DNA of 64,000 bases from an uncultured Oscillospiraceae bacterium (lineage in GTDB: Bacteria > Bacillota > Clostridia > Oscillospirales > Oscillospiraceae), in contig CAYNZM010000002.1 of assembly GCA_964401725.1 (NCBI GenBank), positions 3,711-67,710 of the forward strand. Direction: 5' to 3'. Each line of letters begins with the position of its first letter. Position 1 is the stretch's first letter. The position numbers and the translations under genes were made by a program. Shown here piece by piece: positions 8,008-63,090 of this stretch. The notes below the pieces were generated by a model that was given only the letters and a program-made list of their open reading frames with translations, did not search any database and had not been told where the DNA came from.

Positions 8008-8026
8008 GCCAACCGCATAAACCAAA

Positions 8027-8062
8027 GGACGCCGCGATCGCTCGCGGCGTCCTCTTTTTTCT
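8027..8062 (+). terminator. Intrinsic terminator after PFOR
   Basis: GGACGCCGCGA/TCGCGGCGTCC stem followed by TCTTTTTTCTGCTTTTT. Confidence 0.7.
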
Positions 8063-8074
8063 GCTTTTTGAGGT

Positions 8075-9091
8075 TTATTCGACAATATCCGCTTCGAGAG
8101 GGAAGGTAACCTGCCAGTTTCCCTCCGTCAGCAGGGAGGCGGTGTAGAAATCGCCGTAGAAGGCGTCCGGGTCCAGGTCCTGCGGGGCAAGGTCGAAGAC
8201 GTATTCCTCGATGCCGCTGACGCCGTCGTCGTCCCAGAAGGAGTAGGAACTGTCGGCGTATATCGTTTCGCCGTTCTCGTCGATATAGTACAGAAAGCCG
8301 TGGTTGTCCGTGCGGAGGATGTCCTCGTATCGCACCTGCATGTGGAGCGCTTCGTTCACCCAGCCTGCGGCGGTGACGGTCACGCCGTCCGCCGGAGAGA
8401 GCAGCGGCTCGCTCCGGGACGCGAGGACGAGGAGGGCGCTGTCTCCGCTCCATACGCTGCCGCCGCGCAGTTCCGTCACCGTCCGCGTCGCGGCCTCCGC
8501 GGGCAGGTCCTTCAGCGCCGCTCCCAGGGACACGCCCTCCGCGGCCTGCTTCCCACTGAGGATCCGATGGACGGAAAAGGTGGCCTTGCTCCCGCGTTCG
8601 GGGAGCTCCTGCCCATCCATGGCGGTACTGTACACATAGAACACGGCGGTCCCGGTGTCCTCGTCATAGCTCTCCATACGGCAGGTCCCCATACTGTCGT
8701 AGGCAGTGTGGAAGCTCCAACTGTCGAAGAGGTCTGCGGTCCCGTCGATCCGGTCCCCGGCGAGGTCCCGCAGGGCGATGTACGCCTCGGCGGTGTCGTC
8801 CCGGACAGAGGCGGCAAGGACCTCCATCTGAATGTCGTTGTCCACGCAGGCAAGGCGCACGGGACGGAAGCGCTGGGCAAGCGTCGGCATGGCGGCGTAA
8901 AGCAGCTCGTATCCAGCGTCGCTGAGGGCCATGGCGGGCAGCGCCAGCGCAAGGCATAGGATCGCGGCGGCGGCTATGACGGCGGCGCGACGCAGGACGG
9001 AGCCCGTCCGGCGCTTCGGTGTCTCGCAGGCTTCGAGAATGTGGCGGTCTTCCAGCCCGTTCATGGCGCAGGCAAGGTCGTTTTTCGTCAT
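8075..9091 (-). CDS. Putative anti-sigma factor (single TM, DUF4179-like extracytoplasmic beta-rich domain)
   Basis: The start MTKNDLA overlaps the sigma-factor stop in an ATGA junction (9088-9091). A TM segment AAVIAAAAILCLALALPAMA is present. The track ORF 8075..9511 carries a spurious N-terminal extension. Confidence 0.55.
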   Translation of the reverse strand: MTKNDLACAMNGLEDRHILEACETPKRRTGSVLRRAAVIAAAAILCLALALPAMALSDAGYELLYAAMPTLAQRFRPVRLACVDNDIQMEVLAASVRDDTAEAYIALRDLAGDRIDGTADLFDSWSFHTAYDSMGTCRMESYDEDTGTAVFYVYSTAMDGQELPERGSKATFSVHRILSGKQAAEGVSLGAALKDLPAEAATRTVTELRGGSVWSGDSALLVLASRSEPLLSPADGVTVTAAGWVNEALHMQVRYEDILRTDNHGFLYYIDENGETIYADSSYSFWDDDGVSGIEEYVFDLAPQDLDPDAFYGDFYTASLLTEGNWQVTFPLEADIVE

Positions 9092-9752: not shown

Positions 9753-11459
9753 TCACTCGATGCCCGTGAGGTCGAAGCTCTCGAGCCAGGCGGCGGCGTT
9801 TTCGCAGATGCACCGCATGGTTTCCTCGTCGAAGGGGGTGGGAAGCTCCGCCGCGGCGAGAAGCTCCGTGAAGGTCTTTGTCCCGGCGAGCTTGGTGTAG
9901 CGGTAGTACTGCTCCCAGGCGGCCCGGAAGTCCTTCTGGGACTCCGCCCAGAAATACAGGCTCATGGTCTGGGCGAGGCAGTAGTCGATGTAGTAGAACG
10001 GCGACTGGAAGATGTGTCCCTGCCGCTGCCAGAAGCGTCCGTCCCCGAAGAACGGGATCTCCTCGCCGTCGAGCCGCAGCCAGGGCATATACATTCCCGT
10101 CAGCTCACGCCAAATTTCGTTCCGCTCCGCCGGGGTCATGTCCGGCCGCTCGTAGACGATGTGCTGGAAGTGGTCCACCATGGTGCCGTAGGGGATGAAG
10201 GTCAGGGCCGAGGCCAGGTGGCTGTAGTGGAATTTCCGGGTGTCCGGGCCGAAGAAGCCCTCGCTCCAGGGCCAGGCGAAAAACTCCATGCTCATGGAGT
10301 GGACCTCGCTGGCCTCCATGCCAGCCCAGTGGCAGTCGATGGGAACGATGTCCCGGGCGGTCCAGTTCTGGAAGGCGTGACCGGCCTCGTGGGTGACGAC
10401 CTCCACGTCGCCCTGGGTGCCGTTGAAGTTCGCGAAGATGAAGGGGGTGTGGTAGGCGGGAAGCTCCGTGCAGTAGCCGCCGGCCTGCTTGCCGGGGGTG
10501 GCGAGAAGGTCCATCATCTCGTCGTCCAGCATGTGGTCGATGAACTCCGCCGTCTGGGGGGAGAGCTCGTGATAAAACTTCCTTGCCTGGGCCACGATGT
10601 CGTCTGCGGTGCCCATGGGCTTGGGGTTGCCGGAGCGGAACATGAGGGACTGGTCGGCGTAGCTCATGGGGTAGCTCACGCCGAGACGCTTCGCCTGGGC
10701 CCGGCGGATGCGGTCCGCCACGGGGACAAGGTGCTTCTGCACCGCGGCGCGGAAGCGCTCCACCTCCGCCTTGCCGTAGCTCGAGCGGCTCATGCGGCAG
10801 TAGCCGAGCTCCGTGTAGCCGTCGTAGCCCAGCTTCCGGCCCATGCCGTCCCGCAGGGCGGTGAGCTCGGCGTAGAGGCGATCCAGGTCCCCCGCCTTGG
10901 AGCGGAACCAGGAGCCGGTCGCCTTCCACGCGGCAAGACGGCGGGCATCGTCCGGGTCCTGCTGGATGGGCCCCATCTGGGCGACGGTGTAGGTTTTGCC
11001 CTCGAACTCGATCTGCGCCGAGGCGATGAGCTTATTGTACTCCGTGACCAGGGCATTTTCCTGCTGGAGCTCCGGGATGATGGCGGGGGAGAAGGATTTC
11101 AGCGCCAGGTCGATGTTCTTGAAGACCACCGTGCCGTATCTTTCCTCGAACTGGGTACGGAAGGGGCTCTCGAACAGGGTCCGCTGGAAGGCGTTCGAAC
11201 CCTCGGTGAGCAGGGGGGAGGTCTCGTCCCACCAGTCGGATTCGGCCTCGTAGAACTTGTCCCGGGTGTCGATGGAGTGGCGAATTTCCGCGAGGGTCAT
11301 AAGGGTCACGATCTCACCGCTGTAGGCGTCGGCCTCGAGATACACCGCGTCCGCGGCGGCGAAGTCCCGGGCGTTCTGCAGACGGGCGGTGAAGTCCGAA
11401 AGCTTTGCCAGGATCTCGTCCTTGTCCGGGCGGACGTAGGGCATTTCGGAAAATTTCAT
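9753..11459 (-). CDS. M3 family oligoendopeptidase (PepF-like)
   Basis: HEAGHAF zinc motif, about 568 aa. Start trimmed to MKFSEMPYVRPD (ATG 11459). Confidence 0.85.
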   Translation of the reverse strand: MKFSEMPYVRPDKDEILAKLSDFTARLQNARDFAAADAVYLEADAYSGEIVTLMTLAEIRHSIDTRDKFYEAESDWWDETSPLLTEGSNAFQRTLFESPFRTQFEERYGTVVFKNIDLALKSFSPAIIPELQQENALVTEYNKLIASAQIEFEGKTYTVAQMGPIQQDPDDARRLAAWKATGSWFRSKAGDLDRLYAELTALRDGMGRKLGYDGYTELGYCRMSRSSYGKAEVERFRAAVQKHLVPVADRIRRAQAKRLGVSYPMSYADQSLMFRSGNPKPMGTADDIVAQARKFYHELSPQTAEFIDHMLDDEMMDLLATPGKQAGGYCTELPAYHTPFIFANFNGTQGDVEVVTHEAGHAFQNWTARDIVPIDCHWAGMEASEVHSMSMEFFAWPWSEGFFGPDTRKFHYSHLASALTFIPYGTMVDHFQHIVYERPDMTPAERNEIWRELTGMYMPWLRLDGEEIPFFGDGRFWQRQGHIFQSPFYYIDYCLAQTMSLYFWAESQKDFRAAWEQYYRYTKLAGTKTFTELLAAAELPTPFDEETMRCICENAAAWLESFDLTGIE

Positions 11460-11521
11460 TATAAACAGCCTCCTGGGGGTGGATTTTTCGATTTTTGCCA
11501 CCAGAGTATAGCACAAATCGT

Positions 11522-11549
11522 TTGACAAGAAAAGATTTTCGTGTATAAT
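11522..11549 (+). promoter_or_regulatory. Candidate promoter of rpsF-ssb-rpsR (TTGACA-16-TATAAT)
   Basis: Both hexamers are perfect consensus, about 85 nt upstream of rpsF. Confidence 0.55.
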
Positions 11550-11632
11550 AATAGGGCTTGACCGCAGGGTCAGGAGAATTTTCCTTGCTCCTGGGAACAT
11601 CAGGGGCCAAATGACCATAAGGAGGTGCACCA

Positions 11633-11929
11633 ATGGCTAAGACAAGCGAAAAGTACGAGGTCATGTATATCATCGATCCCAACCTGGACGAGGAGACCCG
11701 TACCGCGATCGTCGAGAAATTCAAGGCGCTTGTGGAGGCGAATGGCACGATCGATGAGATGACGGTGAGCGAGAAGCAGAAACTCGCTTACGAAATCAAC
11801 TACATCAGCGAAGGCTATTACGTCCTCATCCAGTTCACCAGCGCTCCCGGCTTCCCCGCCGAGCTCGACCGTGTCCTCGGTATTACCGACGGCATCCTGC
11901 GCAGCCTCATCACGCTGCGCGCGGAGTAA
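11633..11929 (+). CDS. rpsF: 30S ribosomal protein S6
   Basis: YEVMYIIDPNLDEE is the typical S6 N-terminus. The gene sits in the rpsF-ssb-rpsR order. Confidence 0.95.
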   Translation: MAKTSEKYEVMYIIDPNLDEETRTAIVEKFKALVEANGTIDEMTVSEKQKLAYEINYISEGYYVLIQFTSAPGFPAELDRVLGITDGILRSLITLRAE

Positions 11930-50568: not shown

Positions 50569-50691
50569 ATTCATACAAAAACCACTATACCACAATCTTC
50601 CCGGATTGGAAAGCGGCATATTCAAAAAATCCGGCGGTAAATTGTGGACTTTTTTGCCGGAACAGGGTATGATAGACGGGAGGTGAATTCT

Positions 50692-51564
50692 ATGCGAGCG
50701 CTCAATACCAAAATAGACCGCTTCTGCCTTGCCCATCCCCGGTTCGGCATCCCGCGGCTCATGCTGTACATCGTCATCGGAAACGTCCTCGTCTGGGTTT
50801 TCGGGCTCATGGACACCACGAACACGCTGTATTCTCTGCTGTACTTCGATCCCGCGCTGTTCTGCCGGGGTCAGGTCTGGCGGATCGTGACCTACGTCCT
50901 CGTGCCCACCTCCAGCGGTGTGCTGTGGCTGGCGGTGTCGCTGTACTTTTATTATTTCATCGGCTCCGCTCTGGAAAACGCATGGGGTGCGGGGAAGTTC
51001 ACGATTTACTATTTCAGCGGCCTTCTTCTGACGGCGCTGTATTCCCTCGTCGTCTACTGGCTGGGCGGGAGACGCATCCTGGTTTCCGCCACGTATCTGA
51101 ACCTCTCCCTGTTTTTCGCCTTCGCGACCCTATGGCCGGAGCAGCGTGTCCTTCTGTTTTTTATCATCCCGGTGAAGATGAAGTGGCTGGCTTGGGCGGA
51201 TGCCGCGCTGTTTGCCGTGGAGTTCGTCATGGCGCTGCTCGCGGGGCAGATCGGCTATGCTTTCATCCCCGTGGTGGCTATGGGAGCCTATCTCGTCTTC
51301 TGCGGGGAGTGGCTTTTCGACCGCGTCCGGCCCAGCCGGGTGAAGCAGGCCGCCAAGCAGAAGGCCCGGACCATCGAGTTCAAGCAGGCAGCCCAGCGCA
51401 TCCACCGCGAGCAGGCCGCCGCGGGCTACACCCGCAAATGCGCCGTCTGCGGCCGGACCGACGCGGACAATCCCGGCCTGGAATTCCGCTTCTGCAGCCG
51501 CTGCGCGGGCTATCATTGCTTCTGTGCCGACCACATCAACAACCACGTCCATTTTACGGAGTGA
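50692..51564 (+). CDS. Rhomboid-like membrane protein with a C-terminal Cys/His zinc-ribbon tail
   Basis: QVWRIVTYVLVP...YFYYFIGSALENAWGAGKF aligns with the rhomboid WR/GxxxE region. No TM6 His was seen. The tail is CAVCG...CSRCAGYHCFCADH. GGGAGG lies 8 nt before the ATG. Confidence 0.6.
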   Translation: MRALNTKIDRFCLAHPRFGIPRLMLYIVIGNVLVWVFGLMDTTNTLYSLLYFDPALFCRGQVWRIVTYVLVPTSSGVLWLAVSLYFYYFIGSALENAWGAGKFTIYYFSGLLLTALYSLVVYWLGGRRILVSATYLNLSLFFAFATLWPEQRVLLFFIIPVKMKWLAWADAALFAVEFVMALLAGQIGYAFIPVVAMGAYLVFCGEWLFDRVRPSRVKQAAKQKARTIEFKQAAQRIHREQAAAGYTRKCAVCGRTDADNPGLEFRFCSRCAGYHCFCADHINNHVHFTE

Positions 51565-51601: not shown

Positions 51602-53368
51602 ATGTCACGAAAGGAAGTCCGCGGGTGGTTTTTGAAGCTCGCGATATTCACGGCGCTGCTGGTGTGCCTGGGGACGCTGCTGTACGGCACGGCCTCCATG
51701 CTGGCGGAGGAGGGAAGTGCTCTCGCGGAGATCACGGAGAGCGCTGCCTACGCCTCTCCTACGCCGTCCCCCACGCCCACCCCCACCCCCACGCCGACAC
51801 CCACGCCGTCCCCCACGCCGGAGCCTACCCCGGTGCCCACGCCCCTGCCGGAGTTCTCGCCGGTGCGGAGCGTTTCGGAGGTCATCACCTCCACCCGCAT
51901 CGCCGTGGACGGGGAGCTCGTGGAAAACTATCAGGCGGATGACGCCCACCGCATCGACTTCGGCGGCGCGAGCGACTATACGTCCGTGAAGGGCATCATC
52001 ACCTTCCGGGGGAACAACTTCCGGGATACCGCCCAGTACGGCGTCGCGGAGATCGCGGACCGGCGCTTCGGGGACCACTGGCGGGTGGGGACGGACGGTC
52101 TCAGCTCCACCAGCGGCGGCTACTGGGGCGGCAGCGGCTGGACCGGGCAGCCCCTCATCGTGGAGTGGCCGGACAGCACGAAGCAGATCATGAACATGTA
52201 TGACTGGGCCAAGGAAAAGGACGGTCTTGTGGAGGTCATCTACTGCACGCTGGACGGATACGTCTACTTCCTGGACCTGGACACCGGGGACTACACCCGG
52301 GACCGCCTGTATCTCGGCTGGTCCTTCAAGGGAGCCGGAGCCCTGGACCCCCGGGGGTATCCCATCCTCTATGTGGGCGGCGGCCTTGCGAACAATTACG
52401 GCGAGCTGCCCCGGGTCCTGGTCGTGAGCCTTATCGACGGCTCGGTCCTCCACACCTTCGGAAACTACGACACCTTCTCGCCCCGGCCGGACTGGTCCGC
52501 CTTTGACAGCTCCGCCCTGGTGGACGCGGAGACGGATCAGCTCATCTACCCCGGCGAGAACGGCGTCCTCTACCTCGTGAAGCTGAACACGCGCTACGAC
52601 GAGGCCGCGGGGACTCTGTACATCGACCCGGAGGAGGTGAAATTCACCTTCGAGTCCGACTCCGCGAAGGACATGCTCTACGGCATGGAGGACAGCTCGA
52701 TCATCTGGCGGGGGCATCTCTTCCTCGCGGACAACGGCGGGGACTTCATCTGCCTGGATCTGAACACTCTCGAGATCGAGTGGCGCTTCGACTGCCTGGA
52801 CGACACGAATTGCACCGGTGTCCTGGAGGTGGACGGCACGGGCCGTCCGTACATCTACCTCTCCACCTCCTTCCACCTGGGCTTCCGAAGCTGGAGTTCC
52901 GCCACGATCCCGGTCTGGAAGATCGACGCCGTGACCGGGCGGGAGGTCTGGCACCACGACTATACCTGCTACTCCGAGGAGGGCCTCTCCGGCGGCGTGC
53001 AGGGGTCCCTGGCCCTGGGGAAGGGGAGCCTCGACGGCATCCTTTACGTCTCTATGGCGCGGCATCCGAACGGCTACAACGGCCAGCTCCTCGCGCTGGA
53101 CACCGCCACGGGCGACGAGCTCTGGACCTTCACCTCCGACAGCTATTCCTGGTCCACGCCCACCTGCTTCTACGACCGGGACGGGCATGGCTATGTGCTG
53201 TACGCCAGCTGCATCCAGGGAAAGCTCTACTGGCTGGACGGCCTGGACGGCACGCTGTACGACGTGTATCCCTTCGGCTGCACCACGGAGGCCAGCCCGG
53301 TGGTCTACAACAACACCGTGGTCATGGGCACGCGAAACCAGGAGCTCCTCGGCATCACCCTGACATGA
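51602..53368 (+). CDS. Membrane-anchored PQQ-like (BamB-type) beta-propeller repeat protein
   Basis: N-terminal TM segment, a (PT)n linker, then repeated blades ending in DG.LY..D..TG pattern (DGYVYFLDLDTGD, KLYWLDGLDGT, LLALDTATGDELW). Confidence 0.7.
   Translation: MSRKEVRGWFLKLAIFTALLVCLGTLLYGTASMLAEEGSALAEITESAAYASPTPSPTPTPTPTPTPTPSPTPEPTPVPTPLPEFSPVRSVSEVITSTRIAVDGELVENYQADDAHRIDFGGASDYTSVKGIITFRGNNFRDTAQYGVAEIADRRFGDHWRVGTDGLSSTSGGYWGGSGWTGQPLIVEWPDSTKQIMNMYDWAKEKDGLVEVIYCTLDGYVYFLDLDTGDYTRDRLYLGWSFKGAGALDPRGYPILYVGGGLANNYGELPRVLVVSLIDGSVLHTFGNYDTFSPRPDWSAFDSSALVDAETDQLIYPGENGVLYLVKLNTRYDEAAGTLYIDPEEVKFTFESDSAKDMLYGMEDSSIIWRGHLFLADNGGDFICLDLNTLEIEWRFDCLDDTNCTGVLEVDGTGRPYIYLSTSFHLGFRSWSSATIPVWKIDAVTGREVWHHDYTCYSEEGLSGGVQGSLALGKGSLDGILYVSMARHPNGYNGQLLALDTATGDELWTFTSDSYSWSTPTCFYDRDGHGYVLYASCIQGKLYWLDGLDGTLYDVYPFGCTTEASPVVYNNTVVMGTRNQELLGITLT
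51755..51844 (+). repeat. Low-complexity coding repeat encoding (Pro-Thr/Ser)n linker
   Basis: It encodes SPTPSPTPTPTPTPTPTPSPTPEPTPVPTP. The nucleotide sequence is reiterated CCCACGCC-type units. Confidence 0.6.
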
Positions 53369-54646: not shown

Positions 54647-54675
54647 TTGTAATCCCGTGGAAAGCGTGGTACAAT
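54647..54675 (+). promoter_or_regulatory. Candidate promoter of the envelope-decoration operon (TTGTAA-17-TACAAT with TGg extension)
   Basis: Read directly from the sequence, 84 nt upstream of ATG 54759. Confidence 0.5.
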
Positions 54676-54758: not shown

Positions 54759-56519
54759 ATGAACGACAATCCCGACCGCGGTACGTACTGGCAGGGCTGG
54801 CGGAAGCGGTTCCTTACCCTTCTGGCTCCGGCGTTCCTTATGAGCTTCACCGTGGTCTTTTTCGGACCGCTGGACATCGTGAACGCGAACCAGGCGTACC
54901 TTACCTTCTCGGCGGGGAGCCTGGTGCCGGCCTTCGGTCTTGCGACGCTGGGCATCACCCTGGTCATCGCGGCGGTGTTTGCCCTGCTCCCCGGAAGGGC
55001 CCGGGGCATCGCCATGGGGCTTCTTTTGGGACTCGCGGTGATGGCGTATCTCCAGGGGTCGTTCCTCAATGGCGACGTTCTGCAGAAGCTGGACGGCAAC
55101 ACCTTCGACTGGCACGACTTCCCCCGGCAGGCCACCCGGAACCTCCTGCTGTGGCTCGCGGTGCTGGCGGGGCTTTCGGTGCTGGGGCTGTTCTTCCCGG
55201 AGCAGGCCCGGACCGTGACCCTCATCGCGTCTCTCGCGCTGGTGGCGGCCCAGGCCGTGGCCCTTGTGACCACCTGGGTGCCGGAGGACCGCTCGGAGCC
55301 CAATCTGCAGCTCTCCGGCGCGGACCAGTTCACGTTTTCCACGGACGAGAACATTATTTTCATCACCCTCGACCAGTTCAATCCCCTGATCTTCGAGGAG
55401 CAGCTCGCCGCCGACCCCTCTCTGGAGGAGACGTTCAAGGACTTCCTGTACTTCGACAACATGTCCTCCTGCTACTCCTTCACCTTCCCGAGCCTCCTGT
55501 ACCTCGCGACGCACCAGTACTTCGACACCACCGTCCCCACCCGGCAGGCGGTGTATAACGCCTGGCACAGCGACTCCGCCGCGGGCTTCTTCGACGCCCT
55601 GCATGAAAACGGCTACGAGGCGAACCTCTACATGGAATCGAACTATGCCGCTCTCGGCGCGGAGAACATGCTGGGCAAGGCGGACAACGTGGTGGAGGCG
55701 GGACGACTTGTGGTGACGCCGCTGTTTTTTGAGTTCGTTCTCGACATGTCCCTCTATCGCTACATGCCCATCATGCTCAAAAACGATTTCTGCGTCTCCA
55801 CCGGCGGCATCGTGGACATCTCCACCTTCCAGGGGGTCACGAAGCTCCGCATCAACTACGACTTCCGCTCCTCCCTGGAGGAGGAGGGCATCACCCTCAC
55901 GGACGAGCACAGCATGTTCCAGTGGTACCACATGGCCGGAGCGCATTTCCCGTATGTCGTGGACTACGACGGCTACCTATGCGACGAGGACGAGTCCGAT
56001 CGCGAAACAGCGCTGCACGGCTATCTCGTGATGCTGGATACGTTCTTCCAATACCTGAAGGACGCCGGGGTCTACGACGACGCGGCCATCATCATCTCCG
56101 CCGACCACGGGTATTTCGAGTGCTTCCAGACCGTCGGCATGATCAAGCTCCCCGGCGAGCACCGGGACGAGATGGAGATTTCCTCCGCGCCGGTGGCCCA
56201 GGAGGACGTGATGCCCACGATCCTCTCCCTGCTGGGGAAGGACTACGAGGACTACGGCACGACGTTCTTCGACTGGTCCGAGGGTGACCACCGCATCCGC
56301 TGCACGCGGGTCTGGGGGTACATGACCCAGTACCCGGAGGTGGATTGGATCGGGAACCTGGACCAGTGGGACGCGGAGGCCAACGGCTTCGAGCGGTACA
56401 ACGTCTTCGGCGTGTTCTTCTACGACGGCGACCGGGACGATATTCTCTACAAGGAACGCTATTGGTACAATTACGGCTACGCGGACCTCATCGAGCCCTT
56501 GTACGACAGCTTCTACTGA
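54759..56519 (+). CDS. LtaS/EptA-like alkaline-phosphatase-superfamily membrane enzyme (phospho-headgroup transferase)
   Basis: About 5 N-terminal TM segments are followed by an extracytoplasmic domain. It carries IIFITLDQF (metal ligand), YSFTFPS (candidate Thr nucleophile), WYHMAGAHFPY and IIISADHGY. Confidence 0.7.
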   Translation: MNDNPDRGTYWQGWRKRFLTLLAPAFLMSFTVVFFGPLDIVNANQAYLTFSAGSLVPAFGLATLGITLVIAAVFALLPGRARGIAMGLLLGLAVMAYLQGSFLNGDVLQKLDGNTFDWHDFPRQATRNLLLWLAVLAGLSVLGLFFPEQARTVTLIASLALVAAQAVALVTTWVPEDRSEPNLQLSGADQFTFSTDENIIFITLDQFNPLIFEEQLAADPSLEETFKDFLYFDNMSSCYSFTFPSLLYLATHQYFDTTVPTRQAVYNAWHSDSAAGFFDALHENGYEANLYMESNYAALGAENMLGKADNVVEAGRLVVTPLFFEFVLDMSLYRYMPIMLKNDFCVSTGGIVDISTFQGVTKLRINYDFRSSLEEEGITLTDEHSMFQWYHMAGAHFPYVVDYDGYLCDEDESDRETALHGYLVMLDTFFQYLKDAGVYDDAAIIISADHGYFECFQTVGMIKLPGEHRDEMEISSAPVAQEDVMPTILSLLGKDYEDYGTTFFDWSEGDHRIRCTRVWGYMTQYPEVDWIGNLDQWDAEANGFERYNVFGVFFYDGDRDDILYKERYWYNYGYADLIEPLYDSFY

Positions 56520-56537
56520 TCCTGTGAGGCACGGAAC

Positions 56538-58424
56538 ATGATAAACTTCCTGACAGACATCTTCGCCCATGTGATGGACTTCTGCTATGGGCTTCTGCCC
56601 AATTGGATCGCGGCCATCGCGCTGTTCACGCTGCTGACGAAGCTCTTGCTGCTGCCGGTGTCCCTGTGGTCCAATCGCAACGGCCTCAAGATGGTCTCCA
56701 TCCTGCCCCGGGTGAACCGCATCAAAGCGGAGTTTTACGGCGACCGGGAGCGCATCGACGAGGCCACCGCGGCGATGTATAAGCAGACGGGCTATCATCC
56801 GCTCCTCACCATGGTGCCGCTTGCCATCCAGATCATCGTCCTGCTGGGACTCATCGGCGTCATCCACCGCATCGCGGACACGGGCACCGCGCCGGGCCTC
56901 GGCCTCGTGCCGGTGACGGATGGGGGAGCCGCGTGGCTCATGCCCCTCGCGGCGGCGGGAGCGGCGGTGATCCTGAGCCTTGCTCAGAACCGCGTGAACC
57001 CCCTCCAGCGGGAGCAGTCCCGCCCGGAGCAGCTCGTAACAAACGGCATCTCCGTGGGCATTTCCTTGGTCCTCGGCGCGTTCGTGTCCGTGGGCGTCGC
57101 GCTGTACTGGAGCTTCTCGAACCTCATGACCATTGGCGTACAGCTTCTGTGTAACCTCCTCCAGCCGCCGAAAAACTACGTCGATTACGCGGACCTCGCC
57201 GCCAGCCGGGAGGAGCTGCGGAAGCTCGATTCCATGGGCCCGACCCAGACCAAGGAGCTCAAGGCCCGGGAAAAAGCCGACTACAAGCGCTTTTTCTCCG
57301 TGGTGAACAAGAAGCTCGTCTTCTACTCCGAGGGCAGCGGGTTTTACAAATACTTCCAGAATATCATATCCGAGCTTCTCCGCCGGTCCAACGTGACCAT
57401 CCACTACATCACCTCCGACCCCAACGACCAGATTTTTGCCATTGCGAAATCCGAACCCCGCATCCATCCGTACTACATCGGCGAGCGCCGGATGATCACC
57501 ATGTTCATGAAGCTGGACGCGGACATCGTCTGCATGACCATGCCGGACCTGGAAACGTACCAGTACAAACGCTCCTACGTCCGCAGGGACATCGAGTACG
57601 TCTACATCTTCCACGGGATGTTCTCGGGCCTTGTGACCCTCCGCAGCGGCGCTCTGGACCACTTCGACACGCTCCTGACCCCCACCCCGGGCTTCGAGGA
57701 GGAGATGCGGGCCTGGAACCGGGTCCACGGCCTGCCGGACCAGCGCATGGTCCCCTGCGGATACGGCGTCATCGACAACATGGCCGCCCAGTACGACGCC
57801 ATGGAAACAACCGACCACGACCCGAAAACCGTCCTCATCGCTCCCTCCTGGCAGGAGGGGAACGTGCTGGATTCCTGCCTGGCGGACCTGGCGGAGCCTC
57901 TTCTCGCGGCGGGGTACGACATTACCGTCCGGCCCCACCCCCAGTATCTCCGGCGGTTTCCCCAGCGCTTCGAGGCGATAAAATCCGCCAGCGCGGGGTA
58001 TGCCCCGGACCGCTTCCGCTTCCAGACGGATTTCAGCTCCAACGAGACGGTGTTTTCCGCGGACATCCTGGTGACGGACTGGTCCAACATCGGCTACGAA
58101 TACGCCGTGGCGACGAAAAAACCCGTCCTCTTCGTGAACACCCCCCGGAAGCTCGTAAACGACGACTGGACGGAGGAGGACGTAAAAAAATACGCCCCGG
58201 ACGACAATATCCGCTCCCTGCTGGGGGTGGCGGTGGAGCCGGAGGCGGTCCGGGATCGCGCGGCGTCCATCGCCGGGGACATGCTCGCCCACCGGGAGGA
58301 CTACGCCGACGTCATCGAATCCGTGCGCCGGGAGAGGCTCTACCACTTCGGGGAGAGCGGCGTTTACGGCGCGAAATACCTCCTGGGACGCATCCTGGAA
58401 AACCAGAAGAAAGCGAAGGAATAA
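56538..58424 (+). CDS. Fusion: YidC/Oxa1-like five-TM module and TagF-like CDP-alcohol phosphotransferase domain
   Basis: N-terminal half: LFTLLTKLLLLPVSLW, MYKQTGYHPL and GVALYWSFSNLMTIGVQ (YidC core). C-terminal half: VLIAPSWQEG, VRPHPQ and ILVTDWSNIGYEYAVATKKPVLFV (Glyphos_transf pattern). Confidence 0.7.
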   Translation: MINFLTDIFAHVMDFCYGLLPNWIAAIALFTLLTKLLLLPVSLWSNRNGLKMVSILPRVNRIKAEFYGDRERIDEATAAMYKQTGYHPLLTMVPLAIQIIVLLGLIGVIHRIADTGTAPGLGLVPVTDGGAAWLMPLAAAGAAVILSLAQNRVNPLQREQSRPEQLVTNGISVGISLVLGAFVSVGVALYWSFSNLMTIGVQLLCNLLQPPKNYVDYADLAASREELRKLDSMGPTQTKELKAREKADYKRFFSVVNKKLVFYSEGSGFYKYFQNIISELLRRSNVTIHYITSDPNDQIFAIAKSEPRIHPYYIGERRMITMFMKLDADIVCMTMPDLETYQYKRSYVRRDIEYVYIFHGMFSGLVTLRSGALDHFDTLLTPTPGFEEEMRAWNRVHGLPDQRMVPCGYGVIDNMAAQYDAMETTDHDPKTVLIAPSWQEGNVLDSCLADLAEPLLAAGYDITVRPHPQYLRRFPQRFEAIKSASAGYAPDRFRFQTDFSSNETVFSADILVTDWSNIGYEYAVATKKPVLFVNTPRKLVNDDWTEEDVKKYAPDDNIRSLLGVAVEPEAVRDRAASIAGDMLAHREDYADVIESVRRERLYHFGESGVYGAKYLLGRILENQKKAKE

Positions 58425-58427
58425 GCC

Positions 58428-59228
58428 ATGCTCATCCGCTGCAACGACAGCGACATCCCCCGGGTCCGGGACTACATCGGGGAGGACAAAACTCTCTGCT
58501 TCTACTTCTATATGGACATGCTGGCCTGCGGCACGGAGGCCGAGGGTCTCGGTATGTGGACCTGCGAACAGGACGGGACCATCACCGCCGCGGCCTATCG
58601 CTACTACGACGCTCTGCATCTCTACAGCCGCACCGGCATCGACCCACAGGAGCTTCTGCCTCTCCTTCGGGAGCTGGACCCCAAGGTCATCACGGGAAAG
58701 CAGGCGGACATAGACCGTCTCGCGCCGCTGCTTCCCCCGGGGCGGTACGCCTATGAGCTGAGCCACGTCATCACCGCCGACAAGGAGATGGACGGCAGAA
58801 GCGAGCTTACCGTCACTCCGGCGGGGGAGGCGGATATCCCGGAGATCGCGTCCCTCATGATGACGGAGCACATCTACAACACCGTTTACACCTACGACAG
58901 CCTGTGCGAGAGCCTCATCCGCCGGGTGAGGGAGGGCTTCGGACGGCTCTTCGTCATGCGGACGGGGGACGGCCGTCTCGCCGCCACCAACGCTCTGTCT
59001 GCGGAGACGGAGGAATTCGCCGTCATCAACGGCCTCGTGACGAACCCGGACATGCGGGGCCAGGGCCTGGGCCGGGCCATCACCGCCAGCACCTGGAATC
59101 TCGTTCGGGACGAGGGGAAGCGTGGCCTTGCCTTCCTCGGGGCGGACAACGAAAACACCCTGTCCCTCCATCGGCGCATGGGATATACGTTTTTGGGGCT
59201 TTACGCACGGTTAATTCGGGAGGATTGA
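58428..59228 (+). CDS. Two-domain GNAT-family N-acetyltransferase
   Basis: C-terminal acetyl-CoA motif NPDMRGQGLGRAIT. There is a 3-nt gap to each neighbouring gene. Confidence 0.7.
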   Translation: MLIRCNDSDIPRVRDYIGEDKTLCFYFYMDMLACGTEAEGLGMWTCEQDGTITAAAYRYYDALHLYSRTGIDPQELLPLLRELDPKVITGKQADIDRLAPLLPPGRYAYELSHVITADKEMDGRSELTVTPAGEADIPEIASLMMTEHIYNTVYTYDSLCESLIRRVREGFGRLFVMRTGDGRLAATNALSAETEEFAVINGLVTNPDMRGQGLGRAITASTWNLVRDEGKRGLAFLGADNENTLSLHRRMGYTFLGLYARLIRED

Positions 59229-59231
59229 GAT

Positions 59232-61031
59232 ATGCAGGCATTGATGCTGGCCGCCGGCATGGGCAAACGCCTGGGAGCCTATACGAACAATCAAACGAAA
59301 TGCATGGTGCAGGTGGGGGGCAGGACCTTGCTGGAGCACGCCGCGGAGGCCCTGCGGCAGGCAGGCATCCGGAAGTTCACCCTGGTGGTGGGGTATGAGG
59401 GCGAAAAGCTCAAGGCTTTCGCCCGGGAGAAGCTCGCGGACTTCGACCTCACCTTCGTGGAGAACCCGGACTACGCCGCCACGAACAACATCTATTCCCT
59501 GTATCTCGCTCGGGAGGTCCTGACCTCGGACGACACGATCCTCCTGGAGTCGGACCTCATCTACGAGCCACGGCTCATCCGGGAGCTCATGGACTTCGAC
59601 GCCCCCAACGTGGTGGCCGTGGCGAAATACCGGCCCTGGATGGATGGGACCATGACCCTCGTGGACGAGAACGGCGTCATCACAGAATTCGTGGAGAAGC
59701 GGGATTTCCGCTTTGACCGGGCGGAGGAATACTGCAAGACCGTGAACGTCTATAAGTTCAGCCGGTCCTTCTCCGCGGACCAGTACGAGCCCTTTCTCAG
59801 CGCCTACATCCGGGCCTATGGGGACAACCAGTACTACGAGATGGTCCTCAAAGCCCTCGCTCACCTGCCGTTTGCGGGCCTGCGGGCGTACGAGCTCGGG
59901 GACATCAAGTGGTACGAGATCGACGACGCTCAGGACCTCGACATCGCAAACACGCTGTTTGCTCCCCCGGCGGAGCGTCTCCACGCCTACGGACGGCATT
60001 TTGGGGGCTACTGGCGGTATGACCGTCTGCGGGATTTCTGCTATCTCGTGAACCCTTACTATCCGCCCCGGAAGATGCAGGACCAGATGCGGTACATGTA
60101 CGATGCCCTGCTGACCCAGTACCCCTCCGGCATGGCGGATATGCGGCTGCTCGCCGGGAAGATGTTCGGCATAAAGCAGGAGCATATCCTCGTTGGCAAC
60201 GGTGCCGCGGAGCTCATCAACACCCTGGGCCGTATTCTTTCCGGCAAAACGGCGGTGACCCTCCCGGCCTTCAACGAGTACGTCCGCTGTTTCCCGGACT
60301 GCGCGTTTACCCATATCCCCCTCGCGGAGACGGGCTATTGCTTCGATCTCCACCGGCTGCGGGAAGCTGCGGCCTCCTGCGGGAATCTCATCCTCGTCAA
60401 TCCCGACAACCCCACCGGCGCCTTCCTCGCGAAAAACGAGGTCCTGGAGCTCTGTGAGATCACCCGCGCCGCGGGGTCGAGGCTTATAGTGGACGAATCC
60501 TTCGTGGACTTTGCCGCGGGGGAGAAGCGCTTCACCCTCCTGGAGGACGATATTCTGAGCCGATTCCCGAACCTCGTCGTCGTGAAGAGCATCTCGAAAT
60601 CCTACGGCGTGCCCGGTCTGCGGCTCGGGGTCGTGGCCTCCGCCGACACAGAGCTTCTCGCCCGGATGAAGGACCTTCTCCCGGTGTGGAACATCAATTC
60701 CTTCGCGGAGTACTTCCTGCAGGTCAGCGGTCTGTACGCCGGGTCCTACGCCGCCGCCTGTGATCGCATCGCGGAGAACCGGCAGGGGATGATCGAGCGT
60801 CTTGCGTCGTATCCGTTTTTGACGCCCTGCCCCTCGGAGGCGAATTACGTGATGTGCCGGGTGGAGGGCATGACCTCCAAGGCCCTGGCGGATAAGCTCC
60901 TGGAGCGGGATATCCTCATAAAAGACCTTGCCCCGAAGGACGGCTTCGGCGGGGAGAGCTTCGTGCGCATCGCCGTCCGGGACGAGGCCGACAACGAGGC
61001 CCTGTACGCCGCGCTGGACGAGCTCGGCTGA
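59232..61031 (+). CDS. Fusion: LicC-like cytidylyltransferase and class I/II PLP-dependent aminotransferase/decarboxylase (HisC/CobD-like)
   Basis: N-terminal half: MLAAGMGKRLG, NNIYSLYLA and WYEIDDAQDL (LicC pattern). C-terminal half: NPDNPTG and the Lys motif SISKSYGVPGLRLG. Confidence 0.8.
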   Translation: MQALMLAAGMGKRLGAYTNNQTKCMVQVGGRTLLEHAAEALRQAGIRKFTLVVGYEGEKLKAFAREKLADFDLTFVENPDYAATNNIYSLYLAREVLTSDDTILLESDLIYEPRLIRELMDFDAPNVVAVAKYRPWMDGTMTLVDENGVITEFVEKRDFRFDRAEEYCKTVNVYKFSRSFSADQYEPFLSAYIRAYGDNQYYEMVLKALAHLPFAGLRAYELGDIKWYEIDDAQDLDIANTLFAPPAERLHAYGRHFGGYWRYDRLRDFCYLVNPYYPPRKMQDQMRYMYDALLTQYPSGMADMRLLAGKMFGIKQEHILVGNGAAELINTLGRILSGKTAVTLPAFNEYVRCFPDCAFTHIPLAETGYCFDLHRLREAAASCGNLILVNPDNPTGAFLAKNEVLELCEITRAAGSRLIVDESFVDFAAGEKRFTLLEDDILSRFPNLVVVKSISKSYGVPGLRLGVVASADTELLARMKDLLPVWNINSFAEYFLQVSGLYAGSYAAACDRIAENRQGMIERLASYPFLTPCPSEANYVMCRVEGMTSKALADKLLERDILIKDLAPKDGFGGESFVRIAVRDEADNEALYAALDELG

Positions 61032-61107
61032 GGGATTTTTACTTGCCAATCCCCGCGGGGGATGCTATACTAAACCGGATACAATAACAGAAAGAAGGAT
61101 AATCACC

Positions 61108-61368
61108 TTGAAAAAGCTCCGTTTCGCGTTTTTCTTCACCGGCATGGCCGTGGCGCTGATGGTCCCGGCCTTTGCGTATGTGGACCCCTCCGTGACCTCC
61201 ATGGCGATTCAGGCCGTGGCGGGCATCGTGGTGGCGGTAGCCGCCGTGGCAGGCGTGCTTTGGTCCAAGGCCAAGAAGAAGGCCAAGCAGGTCCTGAACA
61301 TCGACGAGAACGCCGGCAAGACCGTGGAGGCCGACGTCGTCATCACCGAGGACGAAAAGAAGGACTGA
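61108..61368 (+). CDS. Small membrane protein (two hydrophobic segments, Lys-rich then acidic tail)
   Basis: TTG start 8 nt after GAAGGA. Length is 86 aa. A 13-bp-stem terminator follows. No family was recognised. Confidence 0.45.
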   Translation: MKKLRFAFFFTGMAVALMVPAFAYVDPSVTSMAIQAVAGIVVAVAAVAGVLWSKAKKKAKQVLNIDENAGKTVEADVVITEDEKKD

Positions 61369-61392
61369 AAACCCGGGAAAACAAACAAGAAA

Positions 61393-61428
61393 CCGGCTCC
61401 GTTCCAACCAGGGAACGGAGCCGGTTTT
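61393..61428. terminator. Bidirectional intrinsic terminator
   Basis: 13-bp stem CCGGCTCCGTTCC/GGAACGGAGCCGG, flanked by AAA and TTTT. Confidence 0.75.
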
Positions 61429-61435
61429 GCCGCTG

Positions 61436-61870
61436 TCATGCCCCGTATTTATCGAATAAATACTCGATGGCGAGCTTGTAGCTCTCGAAGCCGCGGCCGG
61501 CAAAGGTCTTTTCGCAGGCCATGCCGGGGTAGGAGACGCGCCGGAAATCCTCCCGGGCGTTCACGTCGGAAAGATGCACCTCCGCCGCCGGGAGCGACAC
61601 CGCTTTCAGGGCGTCCAGGATCGCGACGCTCGTGTGGGTGTAGGCCGCGGGATTGATGACGATGCCGTCCACCACGCCGTACGCCGACTGGATCATGTCC
61701 ACGAGAACCCCCTCGTGGTTCGACTGGAAGACCTCGCACTCGATGCCGTGGCCGGCGCAGATCTCCCGGATGTACCGGTCCAGGTCGTCGTAGGTCCGGC
61801 GTCCGTAGATGTCCGGCTCGCGGATGCCGAGCATGTTGAGGTTTGGTCCGTTCAGGATGAGAAGCTTCAT
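61436..61870 (-). CDS. aroQ: Type II 3-dehydroquinate dehydratase
   Basis: ILNGPNLNMLGIREPDIYG, QSNHEG and INPAAYTHTS motifs. Confidence 0.9.
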   Translation of the reverse strand: MKLLILNGPNLNMLGIREPDIYGRRTYDDLDRYIREICAGHGIECEVFQSNHEGVLVDMIQSAYGVVDGIVINPAAYTHTSVAILDALKAVSLPAAEVHLSDVNAREDFRRVSYPGMACEKTFAGRGFESYKLAIEYLFDKYGA

Positions 61871-63090
61871 GGCAATGCCTCCAGGATCGCGTCCGCCGCG
61901 TGTTCGGCGGTGGTATCGTTTTCGATTTGGATGTCCGCAAAGCGCTCGTACAGCGGCTTTCGCGCCTCGTACAGAGCCGCGGGGGAGGTCCGCTGGGACA
62001 GGGGGCGGCCTTCGGTGGGGAGGGCGTTTACGTTCCGCCGGAGCCACACGAGCACGCCGTTCTGCCGCAGGAGAGGGTAGTTTTCCTCCCGGGTGACGCA
62101 GCCGCCGCCGGTGGCGATAATGGCCCCGGAGCGTTTCCCGAGGTCCGCGAGGACCTCCGTCTCCCGGCGTCGGAAGCCGGGTTCCCCCTCGGCGGCGAAG
62201 ATGTCCGGGATAGACATGCCTGTCCGACGGACGATCTCATCATCCGCGTCGAGAAGCTCCCGCCCCAGGCGCTCAGCGAGGATCGCTCCGACGGTGGATT
62301 TCCCGCAGCCCGGCATGCCGATGAGGACGATGTTCTCCATCTGCCGGGTGAGGTCCCGGGTGATGGTCTCCACTTGTCCGTCAGGGATGGATGTTTTTGC
62401 AAACTGCTCCGCCGAACCCCGGGCCTGGGCCACCAGCATCCGCAGGCCGTTGGCGCGGGGGATGCCCCGGGCCTCTGCCTCCAGCAGAAGCCGGGTCCGC
62501 AGGGGGTTGTAGATGAGGTCCAGCACCGCCTCCAGCCGGGGAAACGCCTCCAGATCGACCGGGGAGGCCTCTGTACTCGGGTACATGCCCACCGGCGTCG
62601 CGTTCACCAAAATCCGGGCGTCGGCATGGTTTGCGAGGTTTTCGTAGTTGTCCGGACCATGTCTCGAGATGCGGACGATGGGTTCCGCGTCCAGGTCTTT
62701 CAGCGCCGCGGCCACCGCGAGGGATGCCCCGCCGGTGCCGAGGACCACGGCCTTTTTCCCTGCCAGGGGGACGTTCAGGCTCCGGGCGAGGGCCAGGAAC
62801 CCCGCGTAGTCCGTGTTGTCCCCGTGCCAGCCCTCGGGGGTGCGGACGAGGGTGTTCACGCTGCCCACTGCCCGGGCCGCGGGGGATAGGCTCACGCAGA
62901 ATGGCATCACGGTCTTTTTGTAGGGGATCGTGACGTTCATGCCCGCGAGGTCCGTCGCGGCAAGGAAATCCGCCACCGCCCCCGGTTCGAGCTCGCAGAG
63001 GCCGTAGTCGTACCCCGCAAGGCGGGCGTGGATCGCCGGGGACCAGGAATGCCCCAGGTGCCGCCCCAGGAGCCCGAAGCTATTTCCCAT
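61867..63090 (-). CDS. Fused shikimate dehydrogenase / shikimate kinase
   Basis: N-terminal AroE (GHSWSPAIH, VLGTGGASLAV) and C-terminal AroK with P-loop GMPGCGKST. ATGA-type overlap with aroQ. Confidence 0.9.
   Translation of the reverse strand: MGNSFGLLGRHLGHSWSPAIHARLAGYDYGLCELEPGAVADFLAATDLAGMNVTIPYKKTVMPFCVSLSPAARAVGSVNTLVRTPEGWHGDNTDYAGFLALARSLNVPLAGKKAVVLGTGGASLAVAAALKDLDAEPIVRISRHGPDNYENLANHADARILVNATPVGMYPSTEASPVDLEAFPRLEAVLDLIYNPLRTRLLLEAEARGIPRANGLRMLVAQARGSAEQFAKTSIPDGQVETITRDLTRQMENIVLIGMPGCGKSTVGAILAERLGRELLDADDEIVRRTGMSIPDIFAAEGEPGFRRRETEVLADLGKRSGAIIATGGGCVTREENYPLLRQNGVLVWLRRNVNALPTEGRPLSQRTSPAALYEARKPLYERFADIQIENDTTAEHAADAILEALP

Follow-up and report, generated by a model that had tools for sequence, protein, structure and literature searches.

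A 64,000-nucleotide stretch of DNA from an uncultured Oscillospiraceae bacterium (contig CAYNZM010000002.1), referred to below as the window, contains a gene at 56538..58424 (+) in which a YidC/Oxa1-fold membrane module is joined in frame to a TagF-type phosphotransferase domain. This YidC-TagF fusion very probably belongs to a head-group decoration system. The evidence strongly supports a partnership with an LtaS/EptA-like transferase, a membrane peptide with an AxA/YxDP motif, and a cytidylyltransferase pathway for a small head group activated by cytidine diphosphate (CDP) or cytidine monophosphate (CMP). Probably, the fusion is the missing link by which decorations of the phosphocholine, aminoalcohol-phosphate, or phosphonate type are moved from the inside of the cell to its surface. 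A more specific reading, in which the fusion is the central component of a portable and modular envelope decoration system and its YidC module passes a membrane-bound intermediate across, is plausible but tentative.

Domain composition of the fusion protein

The open reading frame (ORF) at 56538..58424 runs without interruption and encodes 628 amino acids (aa). An identical protein (P0001; P and L numbers denote the proteins and loci compared here) is held in an NCBI-derived protein collection. The relatives found form more than 100 protein clusters that have 53-84% identity, 97-100% query coverage, and both Pfam domains, and the fusion is present in at least 576 species-representative genomes (one genome per species scanned). 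Because of these near-full-coverage clusters and species genomes, the fusion is not an assembly artifact, and the in-frame joining described in a first-pass annotation of the gene, made from the sequence alone, is real. That annotation could not say how widespread the architecture is. The numbers above show it to be common, an outcome that the annotation had itself named as refuting; it has nevertheless not been functionally characterized.

The YidC/Oxa1-fold module (residues 1-208; 56538..57161, +) consists of an amphipathic helix, transmembrane helix 1 (TM1) with K35, a cytoplasmic C1 helical hairpin, and TM2-TM5. Pfam 60KD_IMP (PF02096) matches residues 23-206 (E = 7.4e-27, 94.8 bits vs. 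a cutoff of 35) over model positions 1-162 of 163, and the generic NCBIfam YidC domain model TIGR03592 gives a borderline pass (84.6 bits vs. 84.3). A profile of 55 family members matches Escherichia coli YidC (E = 1e-15) and Bacillus halodurans YidC2 (E = 2e-13). In the phmmer and profile alignments, residues 4-205 correspond to residues 335-531 of E. coli YidC and to B. halodurans YidC2, with K35 placed on E. coli R366. When the N-terminal 240 aa were modeled alone with AlphaFold2 (AF2), the model had a predicted local distance difference test score (pLDDT) of 92.1 and a predicted TM-score (pTM) of 0.85. Its best eight PDB matches are all YidC structures (TM-scores of about 0.6-0.68), of which 3wo7_A ranks first (0.64/0.68, root-mean-square deviation 3.6 Å), and everything below rank eight is noise. 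Also retained are the conserved Gln of TM2 and the "YW..SN" motif of TM5. The profile matches and the predicted structure confirm the complete YidC core that had been proposed at first sight.

The fusion has no lipoprotein signal peptide and starts with the amphipathic helix preceding TM1, unlike Gram-positive housekeeping YidCs, in which such a signal peptide is present. It also misses all NCBIfam YidC equivalog cutoffs widely (e.g., 36 bits vs. 377 for SpoIIIJ). The fusion is thus a structural member of the YidC/Oxa1 superfamily that is separated from housekeeping YidC by its equivalog scores and its gene context.

Among 204 fusions, groove position 35 is Lys in 98% and Arg in 1%, which agrees with the initial observation that TM1 has Lys in place of the usual Arg. 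In the same set, conservation reaches at least 94% at T31, N48, Q98, Q150, N151, N154, Q157, E159, Q160, S172, S176, Y190, W191, S194, N195, and N206. When 96 diverse fusions are compared column by column, the YidC module has a mean conservation of 0.64 and the TagF domain one of 0.68, with 20 and 25% of their columns, respectively, conserved at 90% or more. The most conserved stretches include the cytoplasmic C2 loop (0.76) and the interdomain linker (residues 209-255; 57162..57302, +). The linker has a mean of 0.67, with 25% of its columns at least 90% conserved, and is helical in the full-length model. Such a pattern in the alignments indicates a specific function of the module in a fixed geometry with the enzyme and does not point to a mere tether.

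The remainder of the protein, residues 256-628 plus the stop codon (57303..58424, +), is assigned to a divergent TagF-type (Glyphos_transf, GT-B-like) phosphotransferase domain. Pfam Glyphos_transf (PF04464) matches residues 387-533 (E = 4.2e-10, 39.6 bits vs. a cutoff of 22.1). This match is partial (model positions 143-292 of 367), and that of the relative P0121 spans positions 12-292. For a profile that includes stand-alone relatives, PDB matches are limited to TarL 8va1 (E = 9e-7) and Cps3D 8qoy (E = 2e-6), and the alignment covers the APSW, RPHP, and TDWS..EYA motifs. A phmmer comparison with TarL gives E = 0.012, a very distant kinship. The full-length model (pLDDT 87.7, pTM 0.67) has Cps3D 8qoy and Bcs3 8a0c (with CMP) and 8a0m among its top Foldseek matches, after which the list continues with generic GT-B folds. 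T334, H359, D377, R465, and H467 (in RPHP) are invariant in this domain even at about 30% identity, as is the TDWS..E motif, and H359 and H467 are also invariant in stand-alone TagF-like relatives. H359 may correspond to the catalytic His of TagF. The N-terminal (acceptor) subdomain of the TagF half is not recognizable from sequence. Taken together, the profile matches and the model support the assignment of residues ~256-628 to a divergent TagF-type GT-B domain, and the domain and motifs named in the first-pass annotation stand. Structure prediction, which had been proposed there as a check, gave a YidC fold for the N-terminal part and TagF-like polymerases among the top matches of the full-length protein.

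In the TagF family, the alcohol phosphate of a CDP-alcohol is passed to a hydroxyl group and CMP is released, and a reaction of this kind is also predicted for the fusion. By donor supply and gene context, the TagF half is not a teichoic-acid TagF. Near the fusion, no tagD-like or teichoic-acid genes and no genes for CDP-glycerol or CDP-ribitol synthesis are present, and nothing points to the lipid-linked phospho-polymer or CDP-glycerol polymerase that had been envisaged.

The operon and the partner proteins

Five closely spaced genes make up an operon at 54759..61368 (+), in which the fusion gene comes second. A sigma-70-like promoter candidate (54647..54675, +; TTGTAA-17-TACAAT with TG), which is a pattern match from a consensus scan only, precedes the operon, and a strong bidirectional intrinsic terminator (61390..61427; 16-bp stem with 10 GC pairs) ends it. 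The tight spacing, with a promoter-like site before and a terminator after, supports the view that these genes form one system. The context is that of a decoration operon, not rnpA-yidC-jag. The YidC fold does appear to have been co-opted into a non-housekeeping pathway, as the first-pass annotation suggested. Across the 64-kb window there are no Rfam families and hence no riboswitch ahead of the operon, and no second YidC-like sequence was found in the window.

The first gene (54759..56519, +) encodes a 586-aa LtaS/EptA-like transferase of the alkaline phosphatase (AP) superfamily, with a Pfam Sulfatase match (30.6 bits vs. a cutoff of 25), a weak LtaS NCBIfam match, and weak PDB matches to LtaS/LtaP. 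The protein has five N-terminal transmembrane helices, seen in the sequence, and a catalytic domain outside the cytoplasm. Among 38 homologs, the catalytic residues D205, T242 (SFTFPS), H391, H396, and D449-H450 are at least 95% conserved. LtaS/EptA-type enzymes act outside the membrane through a Thr-linked intermediate and take their groups from phospholipid head groups. The conserved Thr/Asp/His set of this partner, along with the invariant His pair and donor motifs of the TagF half, suggests that both enzymes may be catalytically competent.

The third gene (58428..59228, +) encodes a 266-aa GNAT-family acetyltransferase (Pfam Acetyltransf_1/FR47). The fourth (59232..61031, +) encodes a bifunctional protein with an N-terminal LicC-like cytidylyltransferase (NTP_transf_3) and a C-terminal CobD-like, pyridoxal phosphate-dependent decarboxylase (Aminotran_1_2). 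This protein scores 191 bits with TIGR01140, which is below the cutoff. Its PDB matches are 6oux ("threonine phosphate decarboxylase-like enzyme," E = 2.6e-37) followed by CobD 1lc5; for its N-terminal half, the matches are LicC 1jyk and the PntC fusion 6pd1. The 6oux entry is probably SMUL_1544 of Sulfurospirillum, an L-serine-O-phosphate decarboxylase that forms ethanolamine phosphate. The bifunctional enzyme is predicted to make a CDP-aminoalcohol directly from phosphoserine or phosphothreonine, such that the CobD-like decarboxylase and the LicC-like domain would convert a phospho-amino acid to the activated donor and the GNAT enzyme may add an N-acetyl group. The donor in the window is probably CDP-ethanolamine or CDP-aminopropanol.

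The fifth gene (61108..61368, +), with a TTG start and an AGAAGGA ribosome-binding site, encodes an 86-aa hairpin/procoat-like membrane microprotein with the AxA/YxDP motif. A second promoter-like site (61043..61071, +; 10 of 12 matches with TG, pattern only) lies directly 5' of it. The same 86-aa protein is present in the NCBI-derived collection, and the family has at least 7,324 matched proteins, with no match in Pfam and only a sub-threshold match in NCBIfam. Among 120 diverse members, Ala occupies position -3 in 96% and position -1 in 100%, while Tyr +1, Asp +3, and Pro +4 are each 100% conserved and are followed by Ser/Gly at +5. The motif starts at residue 23 (median) and is followed by ~23 hydrophobic residues and then by five Lys/Arg within 12 residues. 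By this motif, the microprotein reads as a candidate substrate of signal peptidase I. The mature form would begin at Tyr, with about six residues outside, one transmembrane crossing, and a basic cytoplasmic tail. Phage procoat-type YidC-only substrates, of which M13 procoat and Pf3 coat are established examples, have the same architecture.

Members of the hairpin family nearly always adjoin sulfatase/LtaS-like genes and a gene for a cytoplasmic GT-B-type transferase. Copies elsewhere include L001:14330-14602, L086:7814-8038, L087:7702-7944, and L088:9357-9638, and even very distant members have a sulfatase-like gene on one side and, on the other, an overlapping gene for a cytoplasmic transferase. 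In L172 (4643-7396) from Candidatus Daviesbacteria, sulfatase-like and hairpin genes are followed by a gene for a GT4 glycosyltransferase, not a TagF-like enzyme. Because GT4 replaces the TagF-like enzyme at this locus, the hairpin/AP-superfamily pair is suggested to work with different cytoplasmic GT-B enzymes. At L088:11320-11802 (-), a signal peptidase I gene (Peptidase_S26) is located between two sulfatase-like genes, and hairpin and TagF-like genes adjoin, which is consistent with processing at the AxA/Y site. The hairpin is an obligatory partner of the system and could serve as a docking subunit, a YidC client, or a carrier.

Gene neighborhoods and natural multi-module fusions

For comparison, 84-86 related loci were analyzed with genes called by a codon log-odds caller trained on the fusion genes, after which the products were clustered and representatives were annotated. 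By hidden Markov model (HMM) searches, the hairpin was found in 75 of 86 fusion loci, with its gene downstream of the fusion in the same orientation in 69 of 73. The LtaS-like family was found in 65 of 86, with most absences on truncated contigs. The third conserved neighbor is a cytidylyltransferase, to which varying donor pathways are attached. A phosphonate pathway is represented by CTP_transf_like joined to phosphoenolpyruvate (PEP) mutase (14 loci), by the thiamine pyrophosphate-dependent decarboxylase Ppd (10), and by an iron-type alcohol dehydrogenase (Fe-ADH; 8). The Lic type is represented by a helix-turn-helix (HTH)-NTP_transf_3-choline kinase protein (14) and an APH/choline kinase (6). 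Other pathways include Aminotran_5 with CTP_transf_like-GFO_IDH_MocA and the CobD-like type of the window. These neighbors strongly support CDP-choline or CMP-(2-aminoethyl/2-hydroxyethyl)phosphonate as donors in other species. No LicD domain was found in the window operon or among the annotated recurrent neighbor clusters, a search that did not scan every ORF.

Of 84 loci, 18 have a GNAT gene directly 3' of the fusion. Loci with a detected PEP-mutase or Ppd gene never contain it, nor was it seen in choline-kinase loci without a separate NTP-transferase gene. This pattern hints at N-acetylation of an amino head group. In Olsenella uli, the gene order is LtaS-like, LicA/C-type gene, and fusion. 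The PntC gene is transcribed in this species, and phosphonate signals had earlier been obtained from whole cells (Rice et al., PMC6697681). In phosphonate tailoring, the steps after nucleotide activation, i.e., after the formation of CMP-activated 2-aminoethylphosphonate (CMP-AEP), have been described as unknown and enigmatic (PMC6697681).

Several lineages have the partners joined in single chains. Sulfatase-YidC-TagF proteins (P0123, P0128, P0129, P0134, and P0139-P0142), YidC-TagF-hairpin-sulfatase proteins (P0122, P0131, P0132, and P0137), hairpin-sulfatase fusions (Adlercreutzia L048 and Berryella L070), and a hairpin-TagF-like fusion (P0176) were all found. All of these orders are consistent with one topology, in which TagF is cytoplasmic, the sulfatase is outside, YidC is N-out/C-in, and the hairpin is N-in/C-in. 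The topology agrees with the first-pass interpretation, since the C-terminus of YidC is cytoplasmic and the multi-module fusions place TagF inside and the sulfatase outside. The position of the two catalytic domains on opposite sides suggests a need for a trans-membrane step.

Relatives without YidC are also present. Stand-alone TagF-like proteins of ~385 aa, with 30-35% identity, have as partners the hairpin, a 515-aa LtaS-like homolog (hhalign probability 99.8%), an NTP-transferase, and phosphonate genes or importers. Because such YidC-less versions of the same core exist, YidC is an add-on to an older core, accessory and not indispensable for the chemistry. In L125 (9119-11160), the gene directly upstream of a stand-alone TagF-like gene encodes a small, separate YidC-like protein that has the canonical groove Arg. 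In L158 (6342-9446), a Gram-negative-type YidC with a P1 domain is encoded 340 nucleotides downstream of a stand-alone TagF-like gene. MsbA-type ABC exporters adjoin YidC-less hairpin/sulfatase systems at L087:5804-7591 and L170:2708-4501 and are not recurrent. Proteins of 438-466 aa that appeared to be a new "TagF-only" architecture were rejected as such; P0292 and P0295 are N-terminally truncated calls of the fusion, and P0327 is a fusion form that lost its YidC part.

Proposed mechanism and alternative explanations

In the proposed mechanism, the cytoplasmic TagF-like domain would first move the phosphate-linked head group (P-X), with release of CMP, to a hydroxyl of a membrane-embedded acceptor in the inner leaflet. 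The acceptor would most simply be diacylglycerol or a glycolipid, which would yield a lipid head-group donor as used by LtaS/EptA/PptA-type enzymes. Phospholipid head-group donors of AP-superfamily transferases have been discussed for PptA (PMC10434233). In the second step, the YidC module would fix the geometry of the enzyme at the membrane, and its hydrophilic, Lys-bearing groove would pass the charged head group of the intermediate to the outer leaflet by local scrambling. In the third step, the LtaS-like enzyme would take P-X on its Thr nucleophile and transfer it to a polymer or protein of the cell surface. Where the system lacks YidC, translocation would fall to general flip-flop or to the housekeeping YidC. 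Scrambling of phospholipids in vitro has been reported for E. coli YidC, Oxa1, and Get1 (bioRxiv 10.1101/2023.09.01.555937), so the fused YidC could provide local translocation. That the YidC/Oxa1 fold here moves a non-protein substrate, namely a phospho- or phosphono-head-group intermediate that is lipid-linked or peptide-attached, in a four-module machine is possible, if on the doubtful side.

Several points weigh against this mechanism. The lipid intermediate and its scrambling by the module are hypothetical, and the TagF-like and LtaS-like enzymes might serve the same polymer at different stages with no handover of P-X. The hairpin resembles a classical YidC client, which favors a conventional insertase role. 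No YidC-like gene was found near stand-alone TagF-like genes save in L125 and L158. In the displacement test, no flippase family recurs in the 84 YidC-less or the 86 fused loci; the transmembrane domain of an MsbA-type ABC exporter occurs in one of the former and none of the latter. This test neither supports nor excludes a translocation role of YidC. The conduit or scramblase role raised in the first-pass annotation is therefore plausible through the E. coli YidC precedent but gains no support from this comparison. Because relatives exist without YidC and without a recurrent flippase, translocation may proceed without a strict need for a dedicated YidC. Furthermore, many of the loci are contigs of metagenome-assembled genomes (MAGs), genes were called and clustered heuristically, and, owing to capped listings and truncated contigs, all counts are minimum values.

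The fused YidC could instead be a dedicated insertase or assembly chaperone, although this is rather unlikely. It would insert the hairpin of the operon and/or the multi-transmembrane LtaS-like partner and assemble a TagF/hairpin/LtaS-like complex, while P-X crosses the membrane by other means or on a polymer precursor. The procoat-like form of the hairpin, which has a signal-type helix with Ala at -3/-1, a short acidic ecto-segment (Y-x-D-P), a transmembrane helix, and a basic tail, is in favor of such a role. The invariant Asp of the peptide and the invariant Lys of the groove fit an electrostatic capture model, proposed by Kumazaki (2014) for the YidC of B. halodurans. The YidC core has been kept in full, C1 hairpin included, and YidC-less systems are explicable by use of the housekeeping YidC. 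However, a housekeeping YidC should be enough, so that selection for a covalent enzyme fusion with a rigid, conserved linker is not obviously explained. In the LtaS-YidC-TagF chains, the LtaS transmembrane helices precede YidC, such that co-translational insertion in cis is impossible. Polar conservation is also far above that usual for broad-client insertases, which a single dedicated client could explain too.

A passive anchor, one of the roles suggested at first, is improbable. The YidC fold would tether the normally peripheral TagF-type enzyme to the membrane, close to its lipid-linked glycan acceptor, and TagF would act in a LicD-like manner on a precursor exported by the cell's own Wzx/TacF-type flippase. 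TagF-family enzymes do act at the membrane surface, and stand-alone and hairpin-anchored TagF-like relatives (P0278 and P0176) imply that the enzyme works with other anchors or none. However, the module is almost as conserved as the catalytic half, its groove Lys is retained in nearly all fusions, and neither the polar groove residues nor the cytoplasmic C2 loop vary among proteins of 35-50% overall identity. In L125, the stand-alone TagF-like gene adjoins a YidC-like gene that is not fused to it, and the obligatory LtaS-like partner and the multi-module fusions would be left unexplained. The conserved polar groove and loops, the linker, and the split version in L125 support a YidC module that is not passive, as do the in vitro scrambling by E. 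coli YidC and the absence of a recurrent flippase family from the fused loci.

A DltX-like shuttle with the peptide as carrier is a still less credible possibility. The TagF-like domain would load P-X on Tyr1 or on the Ser/Thr of YxDP(S/G)(V/T) in a groove open to the cytoplasm, YidC would translocate the short, more anionic segment, and the LtaS-like enzyme would take P-X from the peptide outside. A Tyr of the DltX microprotein is the covalent carrier in D-alanylation, which provides a precedent. The complete conservation of Tyr, Asp, and Pro among the 120 diverse homologs would fit, as would the second promoter-like site before the hairpin gene and the standing of the hairpin as the most conserved partner, fused to either enzyme in different lineages. 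However, the peptide would be consumed stoichiometrically unless the segment returns to the cytoplasmic side, the hairpin is retained in YidC-less systems, and D-P-(G/S) may be a mere tight turn. The hairpin/sulfatase pair with GT4 instead of TagF in the Candidate Phyla Radiation genome (L172) suggests docking and not a carrier of P-X. To our knowledge, no TagF-family enzyme modifies protein hydroxyls, which also counts against the shuttle.

Finally, a housekeeping YidC with an extra C-terminal domain is hardly believable, since the pipeline name and the pass of TIGR03592 by 0.3 bits stand against scores far under every equivalog cutoff, a gene in a variable surface-decoration cassette with no rnpA-yidC-jag context, a patchy distribution among phyla, one locus with two paralogs, and fusion sites in complete genomes that are not known to be associated with the origin-proximal rnpA-yidC cluster.

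Distribution and annotation

An exhaustive search of 1.84 billion representatives found 381 proteins at E ≤ 1e-30. Among the matches listed from the scan of one genome per species, carriers belong to Oscillospiraceae, Lachnospiraceae, and Christensenellaceae. Carriers with complete genomes include Angelakisella massiliensis (LT629945), Berryella wangjianweii (CP053716), Raoultibacter massiliensis (LT962671), and Olsenella uli. Carriers are also numerous in Coriobacteriia (Olsenella uli, Atopobium, Slackia, Gordonibacter, Adlercreutzia, Collinsella, and Berryella), and others belong to Bacteroidales and Victivallales/Lentisphaerae. A 90% cluster from Lachnospira/Eubacterium sp. CAG:248 has 525 member sequences, one of which was found on 567 contigs. 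In unexpected taxa, the fusion was found in single MAGs assigned to Planctomycetia (L024) and Methanocorpusculum (L029). In a phage collection, it is present on three unannotated "Bacteriophage sp." fecal fragments (MT838376.1, MT836777.1, and MT836947.1), and a search of a plasmid collection gave no match. These occurrences in unexpected-taxon MAGs and phage fragments could be explained by mis-binning or horizontal transfer. In Anaerotruncus sp. G3 (L033), two YidC-TagF paralogs on opposite strands, at 6760-8646 (-) and 9962-11857 (+), flank one gene, and Ppd and PEP-mutase genes adjoin.

The automatic name of the fusion is "membrane protein insertase YidC," and fragments are named "CDP-glycerol glycerophosphotransferase family protein." The former label is a systematic mis-annotation of the fusion family. 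Full-text literature searches found no published description of the fusion or the system. Each part is of a known kind. What is undescribed is their combination, in which a YidC fold, a TagF-like enzyme, a procoat-like microprotein, and an AP-superfamily transferase occur together with donor pathways that can be exchanged.

Other features of the window

The rest of the window is core chromosome, with the dcw cluster, rpsF-ssb-rpsR, uvrC, and shikimate genes. An aroE-aroK fusion (shikimate dehydrogenase and shikimate kinase; 61867..63090, -), beside aroQ and the chorismate synthase gene, is convergent with the decoration operon and shares its bidirectional terminator. Upstream of the operon, a gene at 50644..51564 (+) encodes a rhomboid-family membrane protein with a Cys/His-rich, zinc-ribbon-like C-terminal tail (CAVCGR...CSRCAGYHCFCADHINNHVH), and its synteny is limited to the closest relatives. 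The gene at 51602..53368 (+) encodes a secreted PQQ/BamB-like beta-propeller with a long (Thr-Pro)n linker after the signal anchor. A 1,064-aa ORF at 55977..59171 (-), antisense to the LtaS-like and fusion genes, is not a gene. Rich in Arg, Gly, His, and Pro, it is a typical shadow frame of high-GC DNA, and codon log-odds scoring rejects it.

Significance and comparison with known systems

For phosphonate tailoring, the cassette provides candidate transferases beside PEP mutase, Ppd, and PntC genes in many genomes. It also physically links two phosphocholine paradigms, namely CDP-choline with LicD inside and lipid donors with PptA/EptA-type enzymes outside. If the proposed role is correct, the system would explain how 2-aminoethylphosphonate, phosphocholine, and related groups are brought to the surface polymers of many gut anaerobes, a route that has long been sought, and would form a bridge from cytoplasmic nucleotide-activated donors to AP-superfamily transferases outside. 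Handling of a lipid- or peptide-linked head group by the YidC module, if it occurs, would bear directly on the recent proposal that Oxa1-family insertases are scramblases. Zwitterionic surface groups of this type are immunologically active, and human-gut Lachnospiraceae, Oscillospiraceae, and Coriobacteriia harbor the family in abundance. For structural work, the single-chain four-module fusions offer ready-made targets.

Compared with YidC/Oxa1 proteins (B. halodurans YidC2, B. subtilis SpoIIIJ/YqjG, and the E. coli core), the fusion shares the five-transmembrane core, the C1 hairpin, the positive charge in the TM1 groove, and the N-out, C-in topology. It differs in the identity of this charge (Lys in 98% of the family vs. 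the usual Arg), the absence of a lipoprotein signal or P1 domain, and the replacement of the C-terminal ribosome-binding tail by a 420-aa linker and enzyme. The location of the gene in a mobile decoration cassette and the unusually high conservation of polar residues are further differences, and the insertase activity of the fusion is only putative. With TagF/TarL/TarF, Cps3D, and Bcs3, the fusion shares the GT-B-like fold, the APSW, R-P-H-P, and D-W/Y-S-S...E motifs, and, putatively, the two invariant His. Unlike TagF/TarL/TarF, it has neighbors that make CDP-choline, CDP-aminoalcohol, or CMP-phosphonate, and nothing indicates polymerization.

The activation logic is shared with the LicA/LicC/LicD and PntC systems, either as choline kinase with a LicC-type cytidylyltransferase or as PEP mutase/Ppd/(AEPT or Fe-ADH) with PntC. 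In contrast to the Lic systems, the transferase is TagF-like, with no LicD found, and is coupled to an AP-superfamily enzyme. The two phosphocholine routes, via CDP-choline/LicD and via presumed lipid donors/PptA, have been contrasted, and their co-occurrence was not known (PMC10434233). The AP-superfamily partner has the same architecture as LtaS/GacH/EptA/PptA/OpgB (five transmembrane helices and an external catalytic domain), with the Thr nucleophile and metal-binding Asp/His, despite weak sequence similarity. The known LtaS-type members use bulk phospholipids (phosphatidylglycerol and phosphatidylethanolamine), whereas here a dedicated cytoplasmic CDP-X transferase, a YidC fold, and a hairpin are genetically or physically joined to the enzyme.

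Three-component systems such as UgtP-LtaA-LtaS, GtrB-GtrA-GtrC, ArnC-ArnEF-ArnT, and DltABCD/DltX combine cytoplasmic loading of a carrier, translocation, and transfer outside. The overall logic proposed for the fusion system is like theirs, and the microprotein parallels DltX. The components are unrelated, the putative translocator is a YidC fold, and the transferred group is a phospho- or phosphono-head group in the fusion system, in contrast to the sugar or D-Ala of the three-component systems.

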